A DNA stretch of 31,594 bases from Candidatus Sulfobium sp. (GTDB taxonomy: Bacteria; Nitrospirota; Thermodesulfovibrionia; Thermodesulfovibrionales; UBA6898), in contig JARRRI010000012.1 of NCBI GenBank assembly GCA_037380845.1, forward strand, positions 73,635-105,228, written 5' to 3'. Made by a program: the position numbers and the translations under genes. This document shows, one piece after another, positions 17,311 to 24,210 of this stretch. Each line of letters begins with the position of its first letter. The first letter of the stretch is position 1. The notes under the pieces were generated by a model. The model was not told where the DNA came from and did no database searches. It was given only the letters and a program-made list of their open reading frames with translations.

Positions 17311-18351
17311 ATGGAAGACGACATCTATAGTTTTGCGAGAGAGCGGGGCATTAGTGAACGGAAAGCCGTCGACGTGAGTTCGGGGATATGTCCCTGCGGG
17401 CCGTCCGGGAAAGTCAGGGCGGCCATAAGAAAGGCGATAAGGGATATACGGTTTCCCCCTGAGCCTTCTTTATCGAGGCTGAGAAGGACGGTCTCGTCCA
17501 AACTCGGGGCTGCCGGCAACAACGTCTTTTTTGCAAACAGCGTTGAAGAGCTGCTCCGTTTGATTTCAGGTGTATTCAGACCTCAGAAGGTGACGGCCCT
17601 TGGCCCCGTACTTGATGTCCACTCAAGTGCACTGACATCCTCCGGATCCGAAATAGAATGCGCCAGATGGGGGGACGGGGGGGAGACGGGAAGCGGCGGG
17701 CTCGTCTTTGTCTCCCAACCCAACCGCATTAGCGGCAGATTGGTGGACCTGGACCGGATGGACCGGATGTTTGATTCCGGCGGGCACGACAACCTTGTCG
17801 TTGTGGATGAAAGCCTCATCGAATTTACCGGTGACCCCGGCAGCTGCGAACGGGCTTTCCGGGAGGAGAGAGTGATAGTCCTCCGTTCAACTGCGAATTT
17901 CTATGGTCTGCCCGGGCTGGGGGTTGCCTACGCCATTTCGTCCCCGGGGATTATCGGCAGACTGAAGGAGAAGAAGTCCTGTGAAGTCAATACCCTGGCT
18001 GCCGCCGCTGCCCGGGCCGCGCTGATCGACAAGACTTACAGGGAGACGGCAAGAAAATATGTCGCGGAAGAAAGAAAATTGCTCTGCCGGTCGATTGAGA
18101 GGATCGGGGGCTTCAGGTGTTTTGATTCCGACTCCAATGTCTTTCTTATCCAGGCATCTTGTCCTGCAGAGGAGATTTCGTCGATCCTGGCAAGAAAGGG
18201 ATTTCTGATAAGACCCTGGAAGACCGGAGATGCTCCCGGAGGGGTTTTTCTCAGGATGTCGGTCATGGAGCACGAGAAGAATGTCAAATTCCTGAGAGTC
18301 CTGAAGCAGGCTGCCGGCGTTGAGCGGACATCCGGTGGCAGTTGTCAGTGA
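17311..18351 (+). CDS. CobD/HisC-like class I/II aminotransferase-fold protein lacking the PLP-binding lysine (probable pseudoenzyme)
   Basis: Overall layout matches CobD/HisC (VVVDES, LRS..FYGLPGL, SDSNVFL, GFLIR, FLRMSV), but LRSTANFYGLPGLGVAY has Asn at the Lys position. Confidence 0.8.
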   Translation: MEDDIYSFARERGISERKAVDVSSGICPCGPSGKVRAAIRKAIRDIRFPPEPSLSRLRRTVSSKLGAAGNNVFFANSVEELLRLISGVFRPQKVTALGPVLDVHSSALTSSGSEIECARWGDGGETGSGGLVFVSQPNRISGRLVDLDRMDRMFDSGGHDNLVVVDESLIEFTGDPGSCERAFREERVIVLRSTANFYGLPGLGVAYAISSPGIIGRLKEKKSCEVNTLAAAAARAALIDKTYRETARKYVAEERKLLCRSIERIGGFRCFDSDSNVFLIQASCPAEEISSILARKGFLIRPWKTGDAPGGVFLRMSVMEHEKNVKFLRVLKQAAGVERTSGGSCQ

Positions 18352-18398
18352 TTAGAACCTGTTTTAAGAATTGCATTTTCTATTACCGGGTTGTTTGC

Positions 18399-18489: not shown

Positions 18490-18649
18490 GGATTCTTCGG
18501 AACGTTTGATCTTGAGATAAGTTCCAGTATATCTGCCTCGAAAATACCTCGGCCTTTCCGGTACCGTCCGCTGACATCGGCAATGTCACCGATACACGAG
18601 GCCCTTCCGCGAAATGAAAATTGTCTCCGGAATAGGTTAGAATTAAGAT

Positions 18650-19690
18650 ATGTCGGGCAAGTTCGTCCTGAGGGGCGTGCGGTATATATTGGTGGTGTCT
18701 GTGATGGCACTGATCTGGGTAGTTCTAGGTATGGTCTATGCCGACCGCTTCATCCCCCCGTTCAACCATCTGATCCCTTTCCTGATGCCGTGGAAGGCCC
18801 TTAACGCCATACCTTACGACGCAAGCGTCGCCCAGCGTCTGGGGATGATGCACGGAATGATTTATGCCTCCAACAGGGTGGCGAATTATGCCCTTGGTAC
18901 GCTGATCGTATCATTTGCAATGTTCAGTATCTACCTGACACTCGTATACCAGCAGAAGCAGAGAAGGGCCCGCGAAAACAGGATGCTTCTGCTCAAGAAC
19001 CAGGAGATAGCGAGACGAAATGAATTCATACGCTACATATCGGCCACTATAGGTCATGAGTTCAAGAACAACCTCGGTCGAATAAAGCGAAGGGTGGACC
19101 TGCTCCCGGGCATCCCCGGGGACGCGAGGACACGCCTTCACGACAATCTCGAAAAGCTGTTCGCCGATATCGATATTTTCAAGAAGATCTCGGACGAGAG
19201 AGAGGCGGGGCTGATTGATTTCGCGCGCGTAAATCTCCGGGACATACTGGTTGAACTTGGACAGCATTACGGCGATCTCGCCGAATTCAGGTTCGAGGAC
19301 AAAATGCGTGTGCCCGCCATCTTTGCCTCTCAAACCCTGTTGAAGACCGTTTTTGAGAATCTGGTGGACAATGCCATCAAGTACAAGAAGCCCGGACAGG
19401 CACGGGCCAGAATATCGGTGTCGTGGTCAGTCGATGTGGATGTGAGACGGAAGTATGTTTCTTTGTCCTTCAGGGATGAGGGGATAGGCATGGACGAGCT
19501 GGAGGCGGACCAGTGTTTTTATAAGTGGAAGGGCAACCAGGAAGGCTGGGGGGAAGGGCTTTATTTTGTGAAATACGTGATAGGTCTTCATGCAGGTAAG
19601 ATCCGGGTGGGCAAGGAATACACTTCGCCGGGGGTGGGAACGGAGATAATCATCAATCTCCCCTTTGTCGAGGAGGCCATCAATGTTTAG
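18650..19690 (+). CDS. Atypical membrane sensor histidine kinase (2 TM, short loop)
   Basis: H-box IGHEFKNNL, N-box ENLVDNAIKY, G1 RDEGIGM and variant G2 GWGEGL; two hydrophobic segments at the N-terminus. Confidence 0.9.
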   Translation: MSGKFVLRGVRYILVVSVMALIWVVLGMVYADRFIPPFNHLIPFLMPWKALNAIPYDASVAQRLGMMHGMIYASNRVANYALGTLIVSFAMFSIYLTLVYQQKQRRARENRMLLLKNQEIARRNEFIRYISATIGHEFKNNLGRIKRRVDLLPGIPGDARTRLHDNLEKLFADIDIFKKISDEREAGLIDFARVNLRDILVELGQHYGDLAEFRFEDKMRVPAIFASQTLLKTVFENLVDNAIKYKKPGQARARISVSWSVDVDVRRKYVSLSFRDEGIGMDELEADQCFYKWKGNQEGWGEGLYFVKYVIGLHAGKIRVGKEYTSPGVGTEIIINLPFVEEAINV

Positions 19691-20576
19691 GGTCCTGATT
19701 GCCGATGACGATTACGAGGACCGGGAATTGCTGAAGCTGGAAATCCAGCAGGCGCTCAACGAAAAAAATCCCGATCTGAGGTTTTACGAGGCGGTCAGCG
19801 TGAAACAGGCCAAGCAGCTTCTCACCTCTCAGGTTTTCGACCTCATGACACTCGACATTGAATTTGACCGGATGACGGAGGGTATAGACGCCCTTCCTGA
19901 GATCTTCGAGAACTACCCGACACTCAATATTATCGTTATCAGCGGCAAGTTGAACAAGAGTGAAGTCTCGGAGCAGTTGTTCCGTTTCACGAAAGACAAT
20001 GTGCTGAAGGGAAAGCGCTGGGCGCGACATTTCGATGTTCTCGACAAGAAGGACGACAAAAGCGAGGCGCTCAGGCGTGCGTATTCTTTTGCCTTCACTC
20101 AGAAGGAGGGTATGGACAACATACGGGAACTTTTTCTGCTGGCGGAGTCATACCTGGAAAAAAATATGATCGACAAGTGTCTGGAAGTGTACCAGAAGAT
20201 CCAGAATATCGCCCCCGGCGAGAGGGAGTCCAATGAAAATATACGTATTTTTGAGGGCGCTATTTCCGTAGAACATGCGGTGGAATATTACCGGAACGGT
20301 GAGAAAACGGTGGCGGCCCTCCTCCTGGGTCATTATCTGGAAAATCAGCTGAAGATGTTTACTGCGACTATGCTGGGCTGTTCTTTCCCGGCGCTGTACG
20401 ACTGCCTCAAGGCGCTTGAAAGCAACCGGCGTATAGGGCAGTACAGGAGAGGACTGTTTCACAAGCTGCTGAGGCTGCGAAACAAGGCGATCCATCAGCC
20501 TATGTCCATCGCGGAAAGTGACTTTGAGGCGGCTGTAAAGAACCTGCGGCTGCTGGAGGACGCCCTGTCATCATGA
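19683..20576 (+). CDS. Response regulator: receiver + TPR-like helices + C-terminal HEPN/DUF4145-like domain
   Basis: Start MFRVLIADDD with GAGGAGG RBS. Phosphoacceptor D58 (LMTLD), S87 and K122 present. C-terminus has HYLENQLK and LRLRNKAIH (Rx4H). Confidence 0.85.
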   Translation: MFRVLIADDDYEDRELLKLEIQQALNEKNPDLRFYEAVSVKQAKQLLTSQVFDLMTLDIEFDRMTEGIDALPEIFENYPTLNIIVISGKLNKSEVSEQLFRFTKDNVLKGKRWARHFDVLDKKDDKSEALRRAYSFAFTQKEGMDNIRELFLLAESYLEKNMIDKCLEVYQKIQNIAPGERESNENIRIFEGAISVEHAVEYYRNGEKTVAALLLGHYLENQLKMFTATMLGCSFPALYDCLKALESNRRIGQYRRGLFHKLLRLRNKAIHQPMSIAESDFEAAVKNLRLLEDALSS

Positions 20577-21220
20577 ACATGGATTCTTTTAAAAAATATA
20601 TGCTGCCCCCGGGGCCGATTCTCAGTCTGACGCTTATAGGTCTGATGTTTCTCAGCGCCCTTCTGTATTACCGGGCCATCAAGATACAGAGATTTCTCGA
20701 ACCGGCCTTTGCCATTTCCGAGCCGAGGATACAGTTTGCGCAGAATGTGAACGACCTTCTCGTAAGGGAATTCGGCGGAGGGAATGTCGACGGCATAAGG
20801 TTCGGAGGAGGGTCCATCTTTGCGGAACAGGCGCTCTTACTGGAGAGTGAACATCACGAGAAGGGTTTGGATTCAGGAGTTATCGAAAAGCTGAGCAGGG
20901 TTTTTCTCGCCGCACTTCACGACCCGGATATAAGAGGTCATGTCAGCCTTATACTTGTTAATGCAAAGTACAGGATCAGCAAGGACAGTGATTTGAACAG
21001 AACGATGAGGTCCCGGGCGCAGCATATGGCAGACATGGTTCTGAATGCTTTATATGCAGCGGAACCCAGGCTGGAAAAGTATTACGGAGGATACTTTGCT
21101 GCATCGGCCCTGCCGGTGGCCGCTGCGGCCAGGGAATCGGGCTGGATCGAGTTCAGGATTGTACCCACCGAGCGGATGCATATCGAAGTGTTACAGAGGT
21201 TGGGTAAATACGTGCAGTAA
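20573..21220 (+). CDS. Single-TM membrane protein with degenerate OmpA/MotB-like C-terminal domain
   Basis: ATGA-coupled to the regulator; TM at about aa 15-33. LILVNA..LNRTMRSRAQHMADMVLNALY..WIEFRI follows OmpA-like spacing but lacks GHTD and RR. The domain call is inferred. Confidence 0.6.
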   Translation: MNMDSFKKYMLPPGPILSLTLIGLMFLSALLYYRAIKIQRFLEPAFAISEPRIQFAQNVNDLLVREFGGGNVDGIRFGGGSIFAEQALLLESEHHEKGLDSGVIEKLSRVFLAALHDPDIRGHVSLILVNAKYRISKDSDLNRTMRSRAQHMADMVLNALYAAEPRLEKYYGGYFAASALPVAAAARESGWIEFRIVPTERMHIEVLQRLGKYVQ

Positions 21221-21349: not shown

Positions 21350-21479
21350 TGCTTTTCTGCAGTCTGTAAACGGCCCTGCGCAACAGGGCGGTGTGAACCT
21401 CGTCAGGTCCGGAAGGAAGCAGCGATAAGCATTTTTCCTGTGTGCCGCGGCAAGTCGTTTACGGGCTGCAGTAAGGCAG
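21350..21479 (+). ncRNA. ffs: Signal recognition particle RNA
   Basis: Conserved domain IV GTCAGGTCCGGAAGGAAGCAGC (21402-21423) inside a long stem (CTGCAGTCTGTAAACGGC / GTCGTTTACGGGCTGCAG); typical position upstream of dnaX. Ends are approximate. Confidence 0.92.
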
Positions 21480-21558
21480 AAGGGATGTGGTTGAGGGGTC
21501 AAAGTGAGGCGTAAAGTGAACCCCCCGCGCCCTCCTCATTACTCGCAAGGTATTTACT

Positions 21559-23226
21559 ATGAGCTACCTCGTCCTGGCAAGAAAATGGAGACCCCGGGAA
21601 TTCGACGACCTCGTCGGTCAGGAACCGATTATGCGCATTCTGAAGAATGCGGTCTCCCAGGGGAAAATCGCACACGCCTATCTTTTTTCAGGCCCCAGAG
21701 GCGTAGGCAAGACATCTTCCGCCAGGATTCTCTCAAAGGCTTTGAACTGCAAGGAGGGGCCGACTCCGGTCCCCTGCGGTGTCTGTGAATCGTGCACTGC
21801 GATAGCCGACGGTTCATCCGTCGATGTCATGGAAATCGACGGGGCGTCCAACAACAGCGTTGACGATATAAGAGACCTCAGGGAAAGGGTGCGCTATGCG
21901 CCGTCGAGCGGGAGATATAAGGTGTACATCATAGACGAAGTGCACATGCTTTCCGGTTCCGCCTTCAATGCGCTGCTGAAAACGCTTGAAGAGCCTCCTT
22001 CTCATGTCATCTTCGTCCTCGCAACCACCGAGATGAGGAAGATACCGGCCACAGTGGTTTCACGGTGCCAGCATATGCCTTTCAGGAGGATACCCAGCGG
22101 CGCTATACGAGACAGGCTCGGAAAGGTGTCGGAGTCGGAAGGCATCAAGGTTTCTCCCCGGGCGTTGGGTCTTATAGCGAGGGCCGCCGACGGGAGCATG
22201 CGTGACTCCCTTACCATACTTGACCAGCTGTCTTCCTTTTCATCCGAGGTGTCGGAAGAAGATGTAAGAGGCCTGCTCGGTATAGCCGATCTTGGTCTCC
22301 TGTCTAAAGTCTCAAAGGCGCTGATTGCCGGAGAGAGGGTCGAGTTGCTCAAGGCCGTGGAAATTCTTACGGAGCAGGGTGCTGACATCAGGGCTTTTAC
22401 CAAGGGGCTCGTACAGTTTTTCCGGGACCTCCTGGTGGCGAGCGTGATGAGGCGTTCCGATGAGGTCCTTGATCTGGGGGCTGAGGAAATGGCCGCCGTA
22501 AAGGAGATAGCGGCGATGTCATCCGAAGACCAGCTCACTCTTGTTCTCTCTGAAATGATGAAGGCCGAAAACGACGTAAGGACGTCTTCTTCGCCAAGGC
22601 TCGCACTTGAATTGAGCCTTTTAAAGGCAAGCTTCCTCAGCACGATGAAGCCTCTTAAGGACGTGATCGAGAATATCAGCCGTCACGGAGTAAAGTGTAC
22701 GGGAGGATTATCATCCGTCGTCCCTGAAGATGTAAGAGAGGCCGAAGATACGAATGAACAGGAAGAGCGGGAACATGGCGGGAGACCGGTAATGGAAGCG
22801 CAGGGGCAGCCGAAGGCAGCCGGTTCTCCTTCCGGTGATGGGGATGCAAAAGACAAGGCGGAGGAAGAAGACGCGTCCGGGGCATGGGAGAGAACCATCG
22901 CGAGGCTGGACCCCCGCCTCTCATCGCAGCTCGGTCAGGCCGAGGTGGAATTGAGGGGGAATGAGCTTTCCCTAACCCTTAACGGGGGGCATGCGACGCT
23001 GTTCGGGGACTCCATAAAGAACAACCTGGAGGCTATAGGGAAGGTAGTGAAGGACGAGTACGGCCGGGATATTTCGGTCCGTTTCGCCGTTGCGCAAAAA
23101 AAGAAACAGAAAGTCATGAATGAACCTTTGATCAAGGAGGTGCTGGAACTCTTCGGGGGGAGGATTGTGGATGTTTCCCCGGCAGGAGATCCCGTAAATA
23201 AGCAGAACGGAGGAAAATATGTCTAA
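21559..23226 (+). CDS. dnaX: DNA polymerase III subunit gamma/tau
   Basis: MSYLVLARKWRP, GPRGVGKT, zinc-site Cys residues, IIDEVHML, LLKTLEEPP and SRC. Confidence 0.97.
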   Translation: MSYLVLARKWRPREFDDLVGQEPIMRILKNAVSQGKIAHAYLFSGPRGVGKTSSARILSKALNCKEGPTPVPCGVCESCTAIADGSSVDVMEIDGASNNSVDDIRDLRERVRYAPSSGRYKVYIIDEVHMLSGSAFNALLKTLEEPPSHVIFVLATTEMRKIPATVVSRCQHMPFRRIPSGAIRDRLGKVSESEGIKVSPRALGLIARAADGSMRDSLTILDQLSSFSSEVSEEDVRGLLGIADLGLLSKVSKALIAGERVELLKAVEILTEQGADIRAFTKGLVQFFRDLLVASVMRRSDEVLDLGAEEMAAVKEIAAMSSEDQLTLVLSEMMKAENDVRTSSSPRLALELSLLKASFLSTMKPLKDVIENISRHGVKCTGGLSSVVPEDVREAEDTNEQEEREHGGRPVMEAQGQPKAAGSPSGDGDAKDKAEEEDASGAWERTIARLDPRLSSQLGQAEVELRGNELSLTLNGGHATLFGDSIKNNLEAIGKVVKDEYGRDISVRFAVAQKKKQKVMNEPLIKEVLELFGGRIVDVSPAGDPVNKQNGGKYV

Positions 23227-23560
23227 AAAAATGCTCGGTGATCTGATGCGCCAGGCGCAGAAGATCCAAGAAGAGATGCAGAAGACGCAGGAGGAGGCAA
23301 AGAAAAAAACGGCTGAAGCGGCTGCGGGAGGCGGCATGGTAACGGTGGTCGCCAGCGGGGCGGGGGAACTCGTATCGATAAAGATAGAAAAAGATGTCGT
23401 CAATCCCGACGATGTCGAGATGCTGCAGGACCTTATACTTGCGGCCGGCAACGAGGCCCTCAGAAGAGCCCAGGAGATGGTCAATGAAGAAATGTCCAAA
23501 CTGACCGGGGGGCTGCAGCTGCCGGGAATCGGGGGGCTCGGGAATATGTTCGGGAAGTGA
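23219..23560 (+). CDS. ybaB: YbaB/EbfC nucleoid-associated protein
   Basis: MRQAQKIQ, AGGGMVTV and DVEMLQDLILAA; lies between dnaX and recR. Confidence 0.95.
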   Translation: MSKKMLGDLMRQAQKIQEEMQKTQEEAKKKTAEAAAGGGMVTVVASGAGELVSIKIEKDVVNPDDVEMLQDLILAAGNEALRRAQEMVNEEMSKLTGGLQLPGIGGLGNMFGK

Positions 23561-23619
23561 CGGGTTGAAGGCTTTTTCCACTATGAATACCCTAAACCAT
23601 TGCGATTGGAAGTAAGGAA

Positions 23620-24210
23620 ATGCAGGGAATCATCGATAACCTGATCAGTGAGCTGATGCGGCTGCCGGGCATCGGCAGAAAGAGCGCCCAGCGGCTTGCC
23701 TTTTTTATACTGGCGATGCCTGACGGGGATGCCCTCTCCATAGCAAAGGCCATAGAGAATGTAAAGGAGAAGGCGAGGTTCTGCGGCCGGTGCTTCAATA
23801 TAACAGAGAATGAAATATGCGGAATATGCAGTGACGGTTCCCGCGACAGAAGCAGGTTATGTGTCGTAGAGGAACCGAGTAACATACTTGTCATCGAGCG
23901 GGTCAAGAGCTTCAACGGTCTTTATCATGTCCTGCTCGGGGCATTGTCGCCAATAGATGGAATTACCCCGGACAAGCTGAAGATAAAGGAGCTTGTTGAA
24001 AGGGTAAGGGGCAATGGCGTCCGGGAAGTGATAATCGCCACCAACCCGAATACAAAGGGAGAAATAACCGCGCAGTTCATAAAGGAAGAGCTGGGTCCGC
24101 TTGGCGTCAGGGTGACGCGTATAGCTTACGGATTGCCTATGGGGAGCGACCTGGAATTTGCAGATGAGGTAACCCTGGGCAAGGCCCTGGAGGGGCGCAG
24201 GGAGATCTGA
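23620..24210 (+). CDS. recR: Recombination mediator RecR
   Basis: LPGIGRKSAQRLAF HhH, C4 zinc finger, Toprim YHVLLGALSP and ADEVTL. Confidence 0.97.
   Translation: MQGIIDNLISELMRLPGIGRKSAQRLAFFILAMPDGDALSIAKAIENVKEKARFCGRCFNITENEICGICSDGSRDRSRLCVVEEPSNILVIERVKSFNGLYHVLLGALSPIDGITPDKLKIKELVERVRGNGVREVIIATNPNTKGEITAQFIKEELGPLGVRVTRIAYGLPMGSDLEFADEVTLGKALEGRREI

Follow-up and report, generated by a model that had tools for sequence, protein, structure and literature searches.

A conserved two-component system of the Nitrospirota with a putative HEPN ribonuclease-type output domain

A stretch of 31,594 nucleotides from Candidatus Sulfobium sp. (GenBank assembly GCA_037380845.1, contig JARRRI010000012.1, positions 73,635 to 105,228 of the forward strand), called the window here in its full length, encodes a real, conserved and apparently undescribed variant of the two-component system, in which the response regulator carries a HEPN ribonuclease (RNase)-type domain as its output. 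The module consists of three same-strand open reading frames spanning positions 18650-21220 of the window, which encode a sensor histidine kinase, the response regulator and a small membrane protein that we call P3 (Table 1). We regard it as very probable that the output of the regulator is a HEPN domain with an intact catalytic-type signature. On the sequence evidence we also lean, with less assurance, towards the reading that this domain is a phosphorylation-switched RNase with a cellular rather than an anti-phage role. Still more tentatively, we propose that this might be the first two-component system whose regulator is itself an RNase, with aspartate phosphorylation gating HEPN cleavage of a conserved cellular RNA, and with P3 and a patch on the receiver forming a previously undescribed control interface.

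The identity of the output domain is best shown by its motifs, because these sit exactly where the published definition of the HEPN superfamily puts them. As described in PMC3710099, helix 3 of HEPN domains ends in an R-x4-6-H motif that runs into the loop to helix 4, a polar residue (N, D or H) comes right after the arginine, and helix 2 has an acidic residue, typically within an E-x3-[KR] motif; an insert is usual between helices 2 and 3. The C-terminal domain of the regulator displays the fold, the R-x4-6-H motif, the polar residue after the arginine and the helix-2 E-x3-[KR] motif alike. The codons CGA AAC AAG GCG ATC CAT encode R266-N-K-A-I-H271, and the upstream segment HYLENQLK (residues 217-224) supplies E220 and K224; the original prediction of a HEPN output had singled out both segments, placing the former at 20478-20495, and residues and coordinates are confirmed by the DNA. 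It had further proposed conservation of R266 and H271 as a check, and R-N-x-A-[IV]-H is indeed retained in 37/37 orthologous loci (35 by pattern and two by eye), with R-[NH]-x3-H in 119 of the 120 homologues among the matches listed. The residue following the arginine is N in all 37 loci, and among the 120 listed homologues it is N in 118 and H in one, with one sequence not parsed. E220 is invariant, and the complete E-x3-[KR] motif is found in 31 of 35 orthologues (the other four have M) and in 120/120 homologues among the matches listed.

Structural modelling is in line with this assignment. Since a Foldseek search with the whole-regulator model (pLDDT, the predicted local distance difference test, 75.5) returned only receiver structures (TMt 0.7-0.79) and was silent on the output domain, the C-terminal part was folded alone, using an alignment of residues 186-297 from 30 orthologues. 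The resulting AlphaFold model (pLDDT 90.4; predicted template-modelling score 0.84) has helices at 11-19, 23-46, 68-86 and 93-107 and an insert helix at 53-62 (domain numbering); R266 to H271, as model residues 81-86, close helix 68-86, and E220-K224 lies within helix 23-46. In a Foldseek search of this model against the PDB no row reached E<=1e-3; HEPN or HepT proteins account for at least 19 of the top 25 rows listed, each of which has E <= 1.4. The best HEPN row is 2hsb (E 0.062, TMq 0.59), and others are the HepT toxins 7bxo, 6m6w, 7ae6 and 8yuf, as well as 1wwp, 4nqf, 1o3u, 1ufb, 5yep and 1wol. VIA-align, run against 48,161 chains, placed the unannotated protein 3mfn on top (Z 10.9), followed by 2hsb (Z 10.1), 1wwp (9.1), the HEPN-containing N-terminus of Roquin (9.0), SO_3166 (8.7), LsoA (8.2) and 4nqf (7.9), on a scale where Z below about 13 counts as weak for helical bundles. 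Taken alone, comparison of the model with known structures is suggestive rather than conclusive for a HEPN domain. A homodimer prediction with two copies of the domain scored 0.03 against a mark of 0.42, without controls, and is used neither for nor against the assignment.

Profile comparisons point the same way. The best Pfam match of the output domain is DUF4145 (PF13643), with the N-x3-H element aligned: hmmscan gives E 1.7e-4 and 22.0 bits over residues 211-288, and a six-frame DUF4145 search gives 23.8 bits for the window regulator, above the family cut-off of 23.1, and finds the corresponding site, at 18-24 bits, in 9 further genomes that carry an orthologue. At this position other members of the regulator family yield weak matches to HepT-like (two members), HEPN_Swt1 and RiboL-PSP-HEPN models, and HepT structures are among the top structural matches. 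When the domain alignment was compared by hhalign with 26 genuine DUF4145 domains collected from the phylum, the two aligned over 86 columns at E 4.4e-4 with N-x3-H in register, against E 0.11-0.21 over 1-46 columns for three unrelated control pairs. A search of PDB sequences with the HEPN-domain profile found no HEPN chain and one chance-level match (E 0.16-0.17). The nearest Atlas language-model neighbours are DUF4145 and RnlA/LsoA clusters (0.79-0.86), which we treat as a lead only. Most of the sampled DUF4145 domains have the form R-x2-G-N-x3-H, whereas in the regulator family the arginine directly precedes the asparagine (R-N-x3-H), a form that is also that of HepT/DUF86. The domain is therefore, as judged from sequence profiles, nearest to DUF4145, but HepT-like in the form of its motif. 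With the domain model, the mostly HEPN structural rows, the threshold-level DUF4145 match and the motifs in agreement, the predicted HEPN output is borne out.

The N-terminal part of the regulator is a canonical receiver domain. Pfam Response_reg matches residues 4-99 with 38.6 bits (cut-off 30.2), the family profile aligns residues 3-122 to CheY structures, and NCBIfam gives partial receiver matches only. The acidic pair D8/D9, the phospho-acceptor D58, S87 and K122 do not vary among 28 aligned homologues or among 35 genomic orthologues, so that receiver fold, acidic pair, aspartate, Ser/Thr and lysine are all present, with a cognate kinase encoded alongside. One more orthologue, outside these 35 (locus L028), has D8-N9 in place of D8-D9, and keeps D58, E-x3-K and R-N-M-A-I-H. 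No DNA-binding family was matched in the regulator by Pfam at E<=1. Between receiver and HEPN domain lies a TPR-like helical hairpin, seen as modelled helices at residues 144-159 and 163-176, as Pfam TPR_6/TPR_2 matches at residues 149-179 that fall below their cut-offs (E 0.006-0.06), and as a match of the family profile to designed consensus TPR proteins in the PDB over residues 151-206 (E 3e-10, a value inflated by the repeats). The intact receiver, the lack of a DNA-binding helix-turn-helix and the TPR-like hairpin had each been read from the letters alone, and these results uphold the first two and lend support to the third.

The kinase is a compact membrane protein with two predicted transmembrane (TM) helices at about residues 12-30 and 79-100 (calls read from sequence), joined by a loop of about 48 residues. 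The same reading finds no HAMP or PAS domain in it, with the H-box of the DHp domain following directly upon the second TM helix. This H-box, SATIGHEFKNN, which contains His136, is nearly invariant in 27 orthologues. The HATPase_c domain is recognised by Pfam at residues 228-339 (58.3 bits, cut-off 26.4), and many NCBIfam kinase models match in part. Pfam HisKA was not reported at E<=1, and the DHp domain was for this reason assigned from the H-box and the partial NCBIfam alignments. The protein accordingly combines a HATPase_c domain with a DHp helix bearing a phospho-acceptor histidine, as sensor histidine kinases do. In the 27 orthologues the DHp region (residues 102-200) is 80% identical, and the first TM helix, the loop and the second TM helix only 41-57%.

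The three genes are tightly joined. The end of the kinase gene (…AAT GTT TAG, 19690) overlaps the regulator ATG (19683) by 8 nucleotides (ATGTTTAG), a Shine-Dalgarno sequence, GAGGAGG, stands 6-7 nucleotides upstream of this ATG, and an ATGA at 20573-20576 serves as both regulator stop and P3 start. A TTG at 19665 was considered as an alternative start of the regulator and ruled out: the protein begins MFRV…, the residues upstream of MF[RK]V vary among orthologues, and, because conservation begins only at MF[RK]V, the start is placed at ATG 19683. The overlaps had been noted before, and the reading-frame coordinates and the DNA of both junctions agree with them; the three-gene operon is confirmed as an observation. 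The histidine kinase gene stands beside the regulator gene in 37/37 loci (contig ends truncate it in 4), and the order kinase-regulator-P3, whose persistence in homologues had been suggested as a check, is kept in all 37 (five genes are cut by contig ends). When 18 wider loci were compared with the window, only the kinase, regulator and P3 genes recurred.

Table 1. The module and its parts, in positions of the window
Feature	Positions	Strand	Basis
Sensor histidine kinase, 346 aa	18650..19690	+	Reading of the open reading frame, HATPase_c, conserved H-box
Response regulator, 297 aa (receiver, helical linker, TPR-like hairpin, HEPN domain)	19683..20576	+	ATG start
Receiver domain, aa 1-125	19683..20057	+	Response_reg match, CheY alignment, key residues
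Hyper-conserved charged receiver segment, aa 99-125 (alpha4, insertion, beta5)	19977..20057	+	Identity in orthologues
TPR-like helical hairpin, aa 144-176	20112..20210	+	Model helices, weak Pfam TPR, profile match
HEPN domain, aa 193-297 (four-helix core, short insert helix between helices 2 and 3)	20259..20573	+	Model, Foldseek, DUF4145
E220-N-Q-L-K224, E-x3-[KR] motif in HEPN helix 2	20340..20354	+	Conservation in orthologues
R266-N-K-A-I-H271, Rx4H signature at end of HEPN helix 3	20478..20495	+	DNA read, conservation
P3, 215-aa single-pass membrane protein	20573..21220	+	Reading of the open reading frame; TM helix near N-terminus

The rate of change of these proteins bears on what they may do. 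Comparison of the window's genome with four genomes of another class gave identities of 68-72% for the regulator, 62-65% for the kinase and about 40% for P3, against 56-58% for RecR and 47-51% for the N-terminal part of DnaX; the regulator is hence better conserved between classes than either of these housekeeping proteins. Within the regulator, the mean pairwise identity among 35 orthologues from two classes is 77% for residues 1-98, 96% for residues 99-125 and 59% for the HEPN domain, its least conserved part. The segment 99-125, which may be a docking or RNA-binding surface, is rich in lysine, arginine and tryptophan, and its identity is far above that of RecR or DnaX; AlphaFold shows low certainty at residues 104-107, inside it. 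The kinase-receiver pair and the HEPN signature are intact, the three-gene linkage is obligate, purifying selection is strong and the genomic context is not one of defence. This pattern of conservation fits a co-adapted signalling core that would act on a conserved cellular partner, and not a fast-evolving defence effector.

From these observations we envisage a self-contained three-gene two-component module that would work as follows. The membrane kinase, which has a short loop on the outer side and lacks a sensor domain in the cytoplasm, would autophosphorylate on His136 and pass the phosphate to D58 of the regulator, a transfer that we infer because the motifs of kinase and receiver are intact and co-conserved. 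The output of the regulator would be a putative metal-independent HEPN RNase, by analogy with known HEPN RNases, and phosphorylation would most likely turn it on, either through receiver dimerisation, which would bring two HEPN domains together in a composite site, or by freeing the HEPN domain from an inhibitory contact. P3, which is co-translated, is probably an accessory that feeds a signal to the kinase-regulator pair or restrains it. The target would more likely be a conserved cellular RNA, such as tRNA, rRNA or particular mRNAs, than phage RNA, with the cut serving stress or growth control; a cellular RNA is favoured because the regulator is extremely conserved, single-copy and encoded among housekeeping genes.

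Several points weigh against this reading of the module as a phosphorylation-switched RNase. RNase activity, substrate, phosphorylation and oligomeric state are all deduced from sequence. The structural scores for the modelled domain are all of a size at which chance matches between helical bundles occur (Foldseek E >=0.06; VIA-align Z weak), the hmmscan score for DUF4145 is just under the Pfam cut-off and the hhalign probability against DUF4145 is only 34%. The module is not essential, since it is found in only 50/401 genomes of the phylum. Selection may, moreover, centre on a protein contact and not on catalysis, because the HEPN domain is 59% identical and the receiver segment 99-125 is 96% identical.

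The last point leads to the alternative that we take most seriously, although we think it unlikely: the HEPN domain would be a non-catalytic binding module, as in the nucleotide- or protein-binding HEPN/KNTase_C domains, and the regulator a phosphorylation-controlled adaptor of the RssB type that binds a protein partner through the TPR-like hairpin and the receiver patch. That the best-kept part of the regulator is this patch and not the HEPN domain is what such an adaptor would lead one to expect, and a TPR-like hairpin, typically protein-binding, does precede the HEPN domain. The best-scoring HEPN-annotated structural match, 2hsb, belongs moreover to a HEPN group that typically lacks the motif histidine, according to PMC3710099. 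The same source states, however, that non-catalytic HEPN domains typically lose the signature wholly or partly, whereas here the full signature (arginine, polar asparagine, histidine and the upstream E-x3-[KR]) is found throughout the family, in 37/37 loci and in 119/120 listed homologues.

A role in anti-phage abortive infection had also been put forward. In such a system P3, as a MotB/ZorB-like envelope sensor, and the kinase would recognise phage attack on the cell envelope and set the HEPN RNase to work, shutting the cell down; we consider this improbable, and the evidence lends the proposal no support. Defence and toxin effectors are numerous among HEPN RNases (PMC3710099), the module is patchy in the phylum (12/41 relatives, 50/401 genomes), and P3 resembles MotB/OmpA weakly by profile and has Atlas neighbours of that kind. 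Yet PADLOC-DB 2.0.0, which includes ZorB models, assigned none of the three proteins to a named defence system. The kinase and P3 matched no family, and the regulator gave two faint receiver-only rows, to candidate models (PDC-M60B/C, E 0.0025-0.0043, residues 3-61). The 36 nearest flanking proteins that were scanned are varied and housekeeping or metabolic, for example pantoate ligase, GyrA, histidinol dehydrogenase, DnaX, MsrAB, ThiF, cytochromes, a TolC-like protein and radical-SAM/B12 enzymes. Only a DUF3800 protein might be an exception, and no restriction, Abi, transposase or other defence or mobile-element gene, and no MotA/ZorA-type partner, was found among them. The regulator is also single-copy in the window's genome, and across classes it is better preserved than RecR or DnaX are. 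Fast-evolving defence effectors are usually less conserved than housekeeping proteins, which is the opposite of what the regulator shows.

P3 itself has a TM helix at about residues 15-33 (72% conserved), a conserved juxtamembrane segment YYRAxKIQRF[LM]EPA (82%) and a divergent main domain of about 160 residues (38%), in which L107, F194, R195, H203, K212 and Y213 are the only invariant columns. It has no Pfam, NCBIfam or PADLOC match, and a search of PDB sequences with the P3 profile gave one chance-level match (E 0.16-0.17). The suggestion that it is MotB/OmpA-like is weakly supported. P3 shares with MotB/OmpA-like proteins one TM helix at the N-terminus and, after it, a domain of about 160 residues that aligns collinearly with theirs: hhalign of the P3 family against 22 MotB proteins gave a weak match over 147 collinear columns of the OmpA-like domain (E 0.02, probability 2.3%, against E 0.11-0.21 for unrelated controls), and the Atlas feature neighbours include OmpA (0.89) and MotB (0.85) clusters, which serve as leads only. 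On the other hand, neither OmpA (PF00691) nor MotB_plug (PF13677) matched any of 28 P3 family members at E<=10, a six-frame MotB_plug search found nothing in the window's genome, and no MotA-like partner is encoded in the flanks of the module. The hallmarks of those proteins are likewise missing: the TM helix of the window's P3 lacks the aspartate that, as D22, is invariant in the 22 aligned MotB proteins, and the peptidoglycan-binding motifs GHTD, N-x2-LS-x2-RA and NRR face non-conserved P3 columns in the hhalign alignment. The large domain of P3 may be a degenerate OmpA-like domain, which we offer as a lead from sequence comparison.

P3 might alternatively be the direct regulator of the RNase and not the sensor of the kinase, its juxtamembrane segment tethering or inhibiting the regulator at the membrane and phosphorylation releasing or recruiting it; this we rate as quite improbable. 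In its favour, the regulator and P3 are translationally coupled by the ATGA overlap, the juxtamembrane segment (82%) matches the DHp domain of the kinase (80%) and the receiver (81%) in conservation with the TM helices and loop of the kinase (41-57%) far behind, and the charge on the two sides of the P3 TM helix (N side +1.97, C side +2.00) fits either topology. Against it, the contact between P3 and the regulator would be hypothetical, and, if P3 is MotB/OmpA-like, its large domain and juxtamembrane segment would be periplasmic and could not touch the regulator.

The phosphorylation-switched RNase that we favour would resemble several known systems in part. 1) The eukaryotic Ire1 and RNase L, which are activated by dimerisation or oligomerisation, likewise join a phosphorylation- or ligand-controlled signalling domain to a HEPN-type RNase with an R-x4-6-H motif. 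They do so with a kinase or pseudokinase of the Ser/Thr kinase fold in cis, whereas here an aspartate-phosphorylated receiver is paired with a separate histidine kinase. Their KEN domain belongs to the HEPN superfamily, its arginine, the following polar residue and the histidine being catalytic (PMC3710099); the HEPN domain described here is, in contrast, of the small DUF4145/HepT-like type and has no detectable sequence relationship to KEN domains. 2) The toxin-antitoxin system HepT/MntA (SO_3166/SO_3165, 5yep; 7bxo/6m6w) has a similarly small HEPN domain with an R-N-x3-H-type motif. HepT is controlled by an MNT partner and AMPylation, whereas the present HEPN domain shares a polypeptide with a receiver and control by phosphorylation would apply; no nucleotidyltransferase family, as would be expected of a HEPN-MNT antitoxin, was matched in the kinase, in P3 or in the 36 flanking proteins scanned, and the module, unlike HepT/MntA, is not in a mobile or toxin-antitoxin-like context. 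3) In the CARF-HEPN effectors of type III CRISPR (Csm6/Csx1) an N-terminal sensor is fused to a HEPN RNase and a signal gates RNA cleavage. Csx1-type HEPN domains are among those that PMC3710099 lists. Their sensor binds cyclic oligoadenylate, whereas the module described here has a phospho-receiver and no CRISPR context. 4) CheB, the GGDEF/EAL/HD-GYP regulators and the ANTAR regulators share with this one a canonical receiver, a cognate kinase encoded next to it and an output that is not DNA-binding. ANTAR outputs bind RNA and are not known to cleave it.

The combination found here seems to have escaped description. In the available part of PMC3710099 the fusion partners of DUF4145 (restriction endonuclease, helicase, TIR and others) do not include the receiver, and mention is made only of a TM domain that can be joined to a HEPN domain or, alternatively, to a receiver. 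No receiver-HEPN regulator is described in the accessible portions of PMC8195603, PMC11229360, PMC2701414 and PMC11090510, and a search of the full-text literature, with supplements and subscription journals outside its coverage, found no receiver-HEPN or RNase-output response regulator. The literature and PADLOC searches agree with the earlier remark that this three-gene architecture was not recognised as a named system.

As to its distribution, a set of 5.8 billion proteins contains 653 homologues of the regulator at E<=1e-3, of which the 120 listed are 291-299 residues long and 70-91% identical; their named sources are Nitrospirota, Thermodesulfovibrionales and 'Candidatus Sulfobium'. The exception is a regulator (P0020) labelled Syntrophobacteraceae, together with a P3 homologue (P0230) of the same label, probably from one contig of 22,807 bp; the label reflects either a binning error or a transfer. 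When 1.84 billion representatives (50% clustering) were searched with the whole regulator, a single full-length cluster emerged together with fragments from the same family and proteins with generic receivers, and no distant relatives with another architecture. Relatives of the HEPN domain that stand alone (59-196 residues) were sought by profile, with 26 matches, 25 of them at family level (67-191 residues, E <= 1.4e-18, mostly on contigs shorter than 2.3 kb) and the remaining one (P0313) weak and partial (E 6.9e-6, 27% of the query covered). Full-length orthologues are present in 12 of the 41 genomes of relatives and in 50 of the 401 Nitrospirota genomes searched, and the regulator occurs in 35/64 genomes of one family of another class, in 0/75 of a second family and in 0/28 of a third. 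As judged from these searches, the family is confined to the Nitrospirota and patchy. The public sequencing runs listed as holding the DNA are marsh metagenomes, from which it may stem, and no RNA run is among them.

Some side observations concern individual copies of the module. One genome of the same genus has two regulator copies, each 94% identical to that of the window and on two short contigs; this may reflect a strain mixture and not a duplication, the assembly having about 6% contamination. A metagenomic protein of 218 residues (P0132) consists of the C-terminal end of a regulator joined in frame to the start of P3, with degraded motifs; its probable origin is a frameshift or a misassembly that reads through the ATGA junction.

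Regarding the neighbourhood, genes for a PfkB-type kinase and an aminotransferase lie upstream of the kinase gene in the window, and promoter-like sites occur at 18342-18371 and 18614-18643, as consensus matches that are not used as evidence; nor is the result of the consensus scan after P3, where no terminator-like site was found. A radical-SAM protein of about 480-534 residues, in some cases B12-binding, is encoded close upstream of the kinase in 6 of the 18 wider loci (L110, L114, L119, L121, L124 and L125). In most of these it is the immediate neighbour, and most of them belong to the other class; the family to which the window belongs has an aminotransferase in this position. Downstream of P3 comes a small bacterial signal recognition particle RNA (Rfam RF00169, 71.9 bits, E 2.4e-14) at 21367-21464 on the + strand, between P3 and dnaX, followed by dnaX, ybaB and recR; this ffs-dnaX-ybaB-recR block, at 21367-24210, is directly downstream of the module. 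A link to replication through dnaX was considered and dropped, because dnaX adjoins the module in only 2 of 19 regions (the window and L120); at L116 it is on the same stretch, six genes from the module.

Two-component systems are the main signalling devices of bacteria, and their outputs are overwhelmingly transcriptional, with a minority that are enzymatic, such as methylesterases and cyclic-di-GMP enzymes. If the proposal is true, a receiver that gates an RNase directly would constitute a new, post-transcriptional and potentially very fast class of output. The known controls of HEPN RNases are AMPylation, cyclic oligoadenylates, antitoxins and eukaryotic kinase domains; the module would add a new kind of switch to these and would represent a bacterial counterpart of Ire1 and RNase L. 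As the family is small, uniform and strongly conserved, and offers clear point mutants (D58, R266, H271 and E220), the idea is directly testable in vitro. Since the family is found, as judged by the names of its sources, in uncultured sulfur-cycling Nitrospirota, the trigger of the system could be informative about their ways of dealing with envelope or redox stress.

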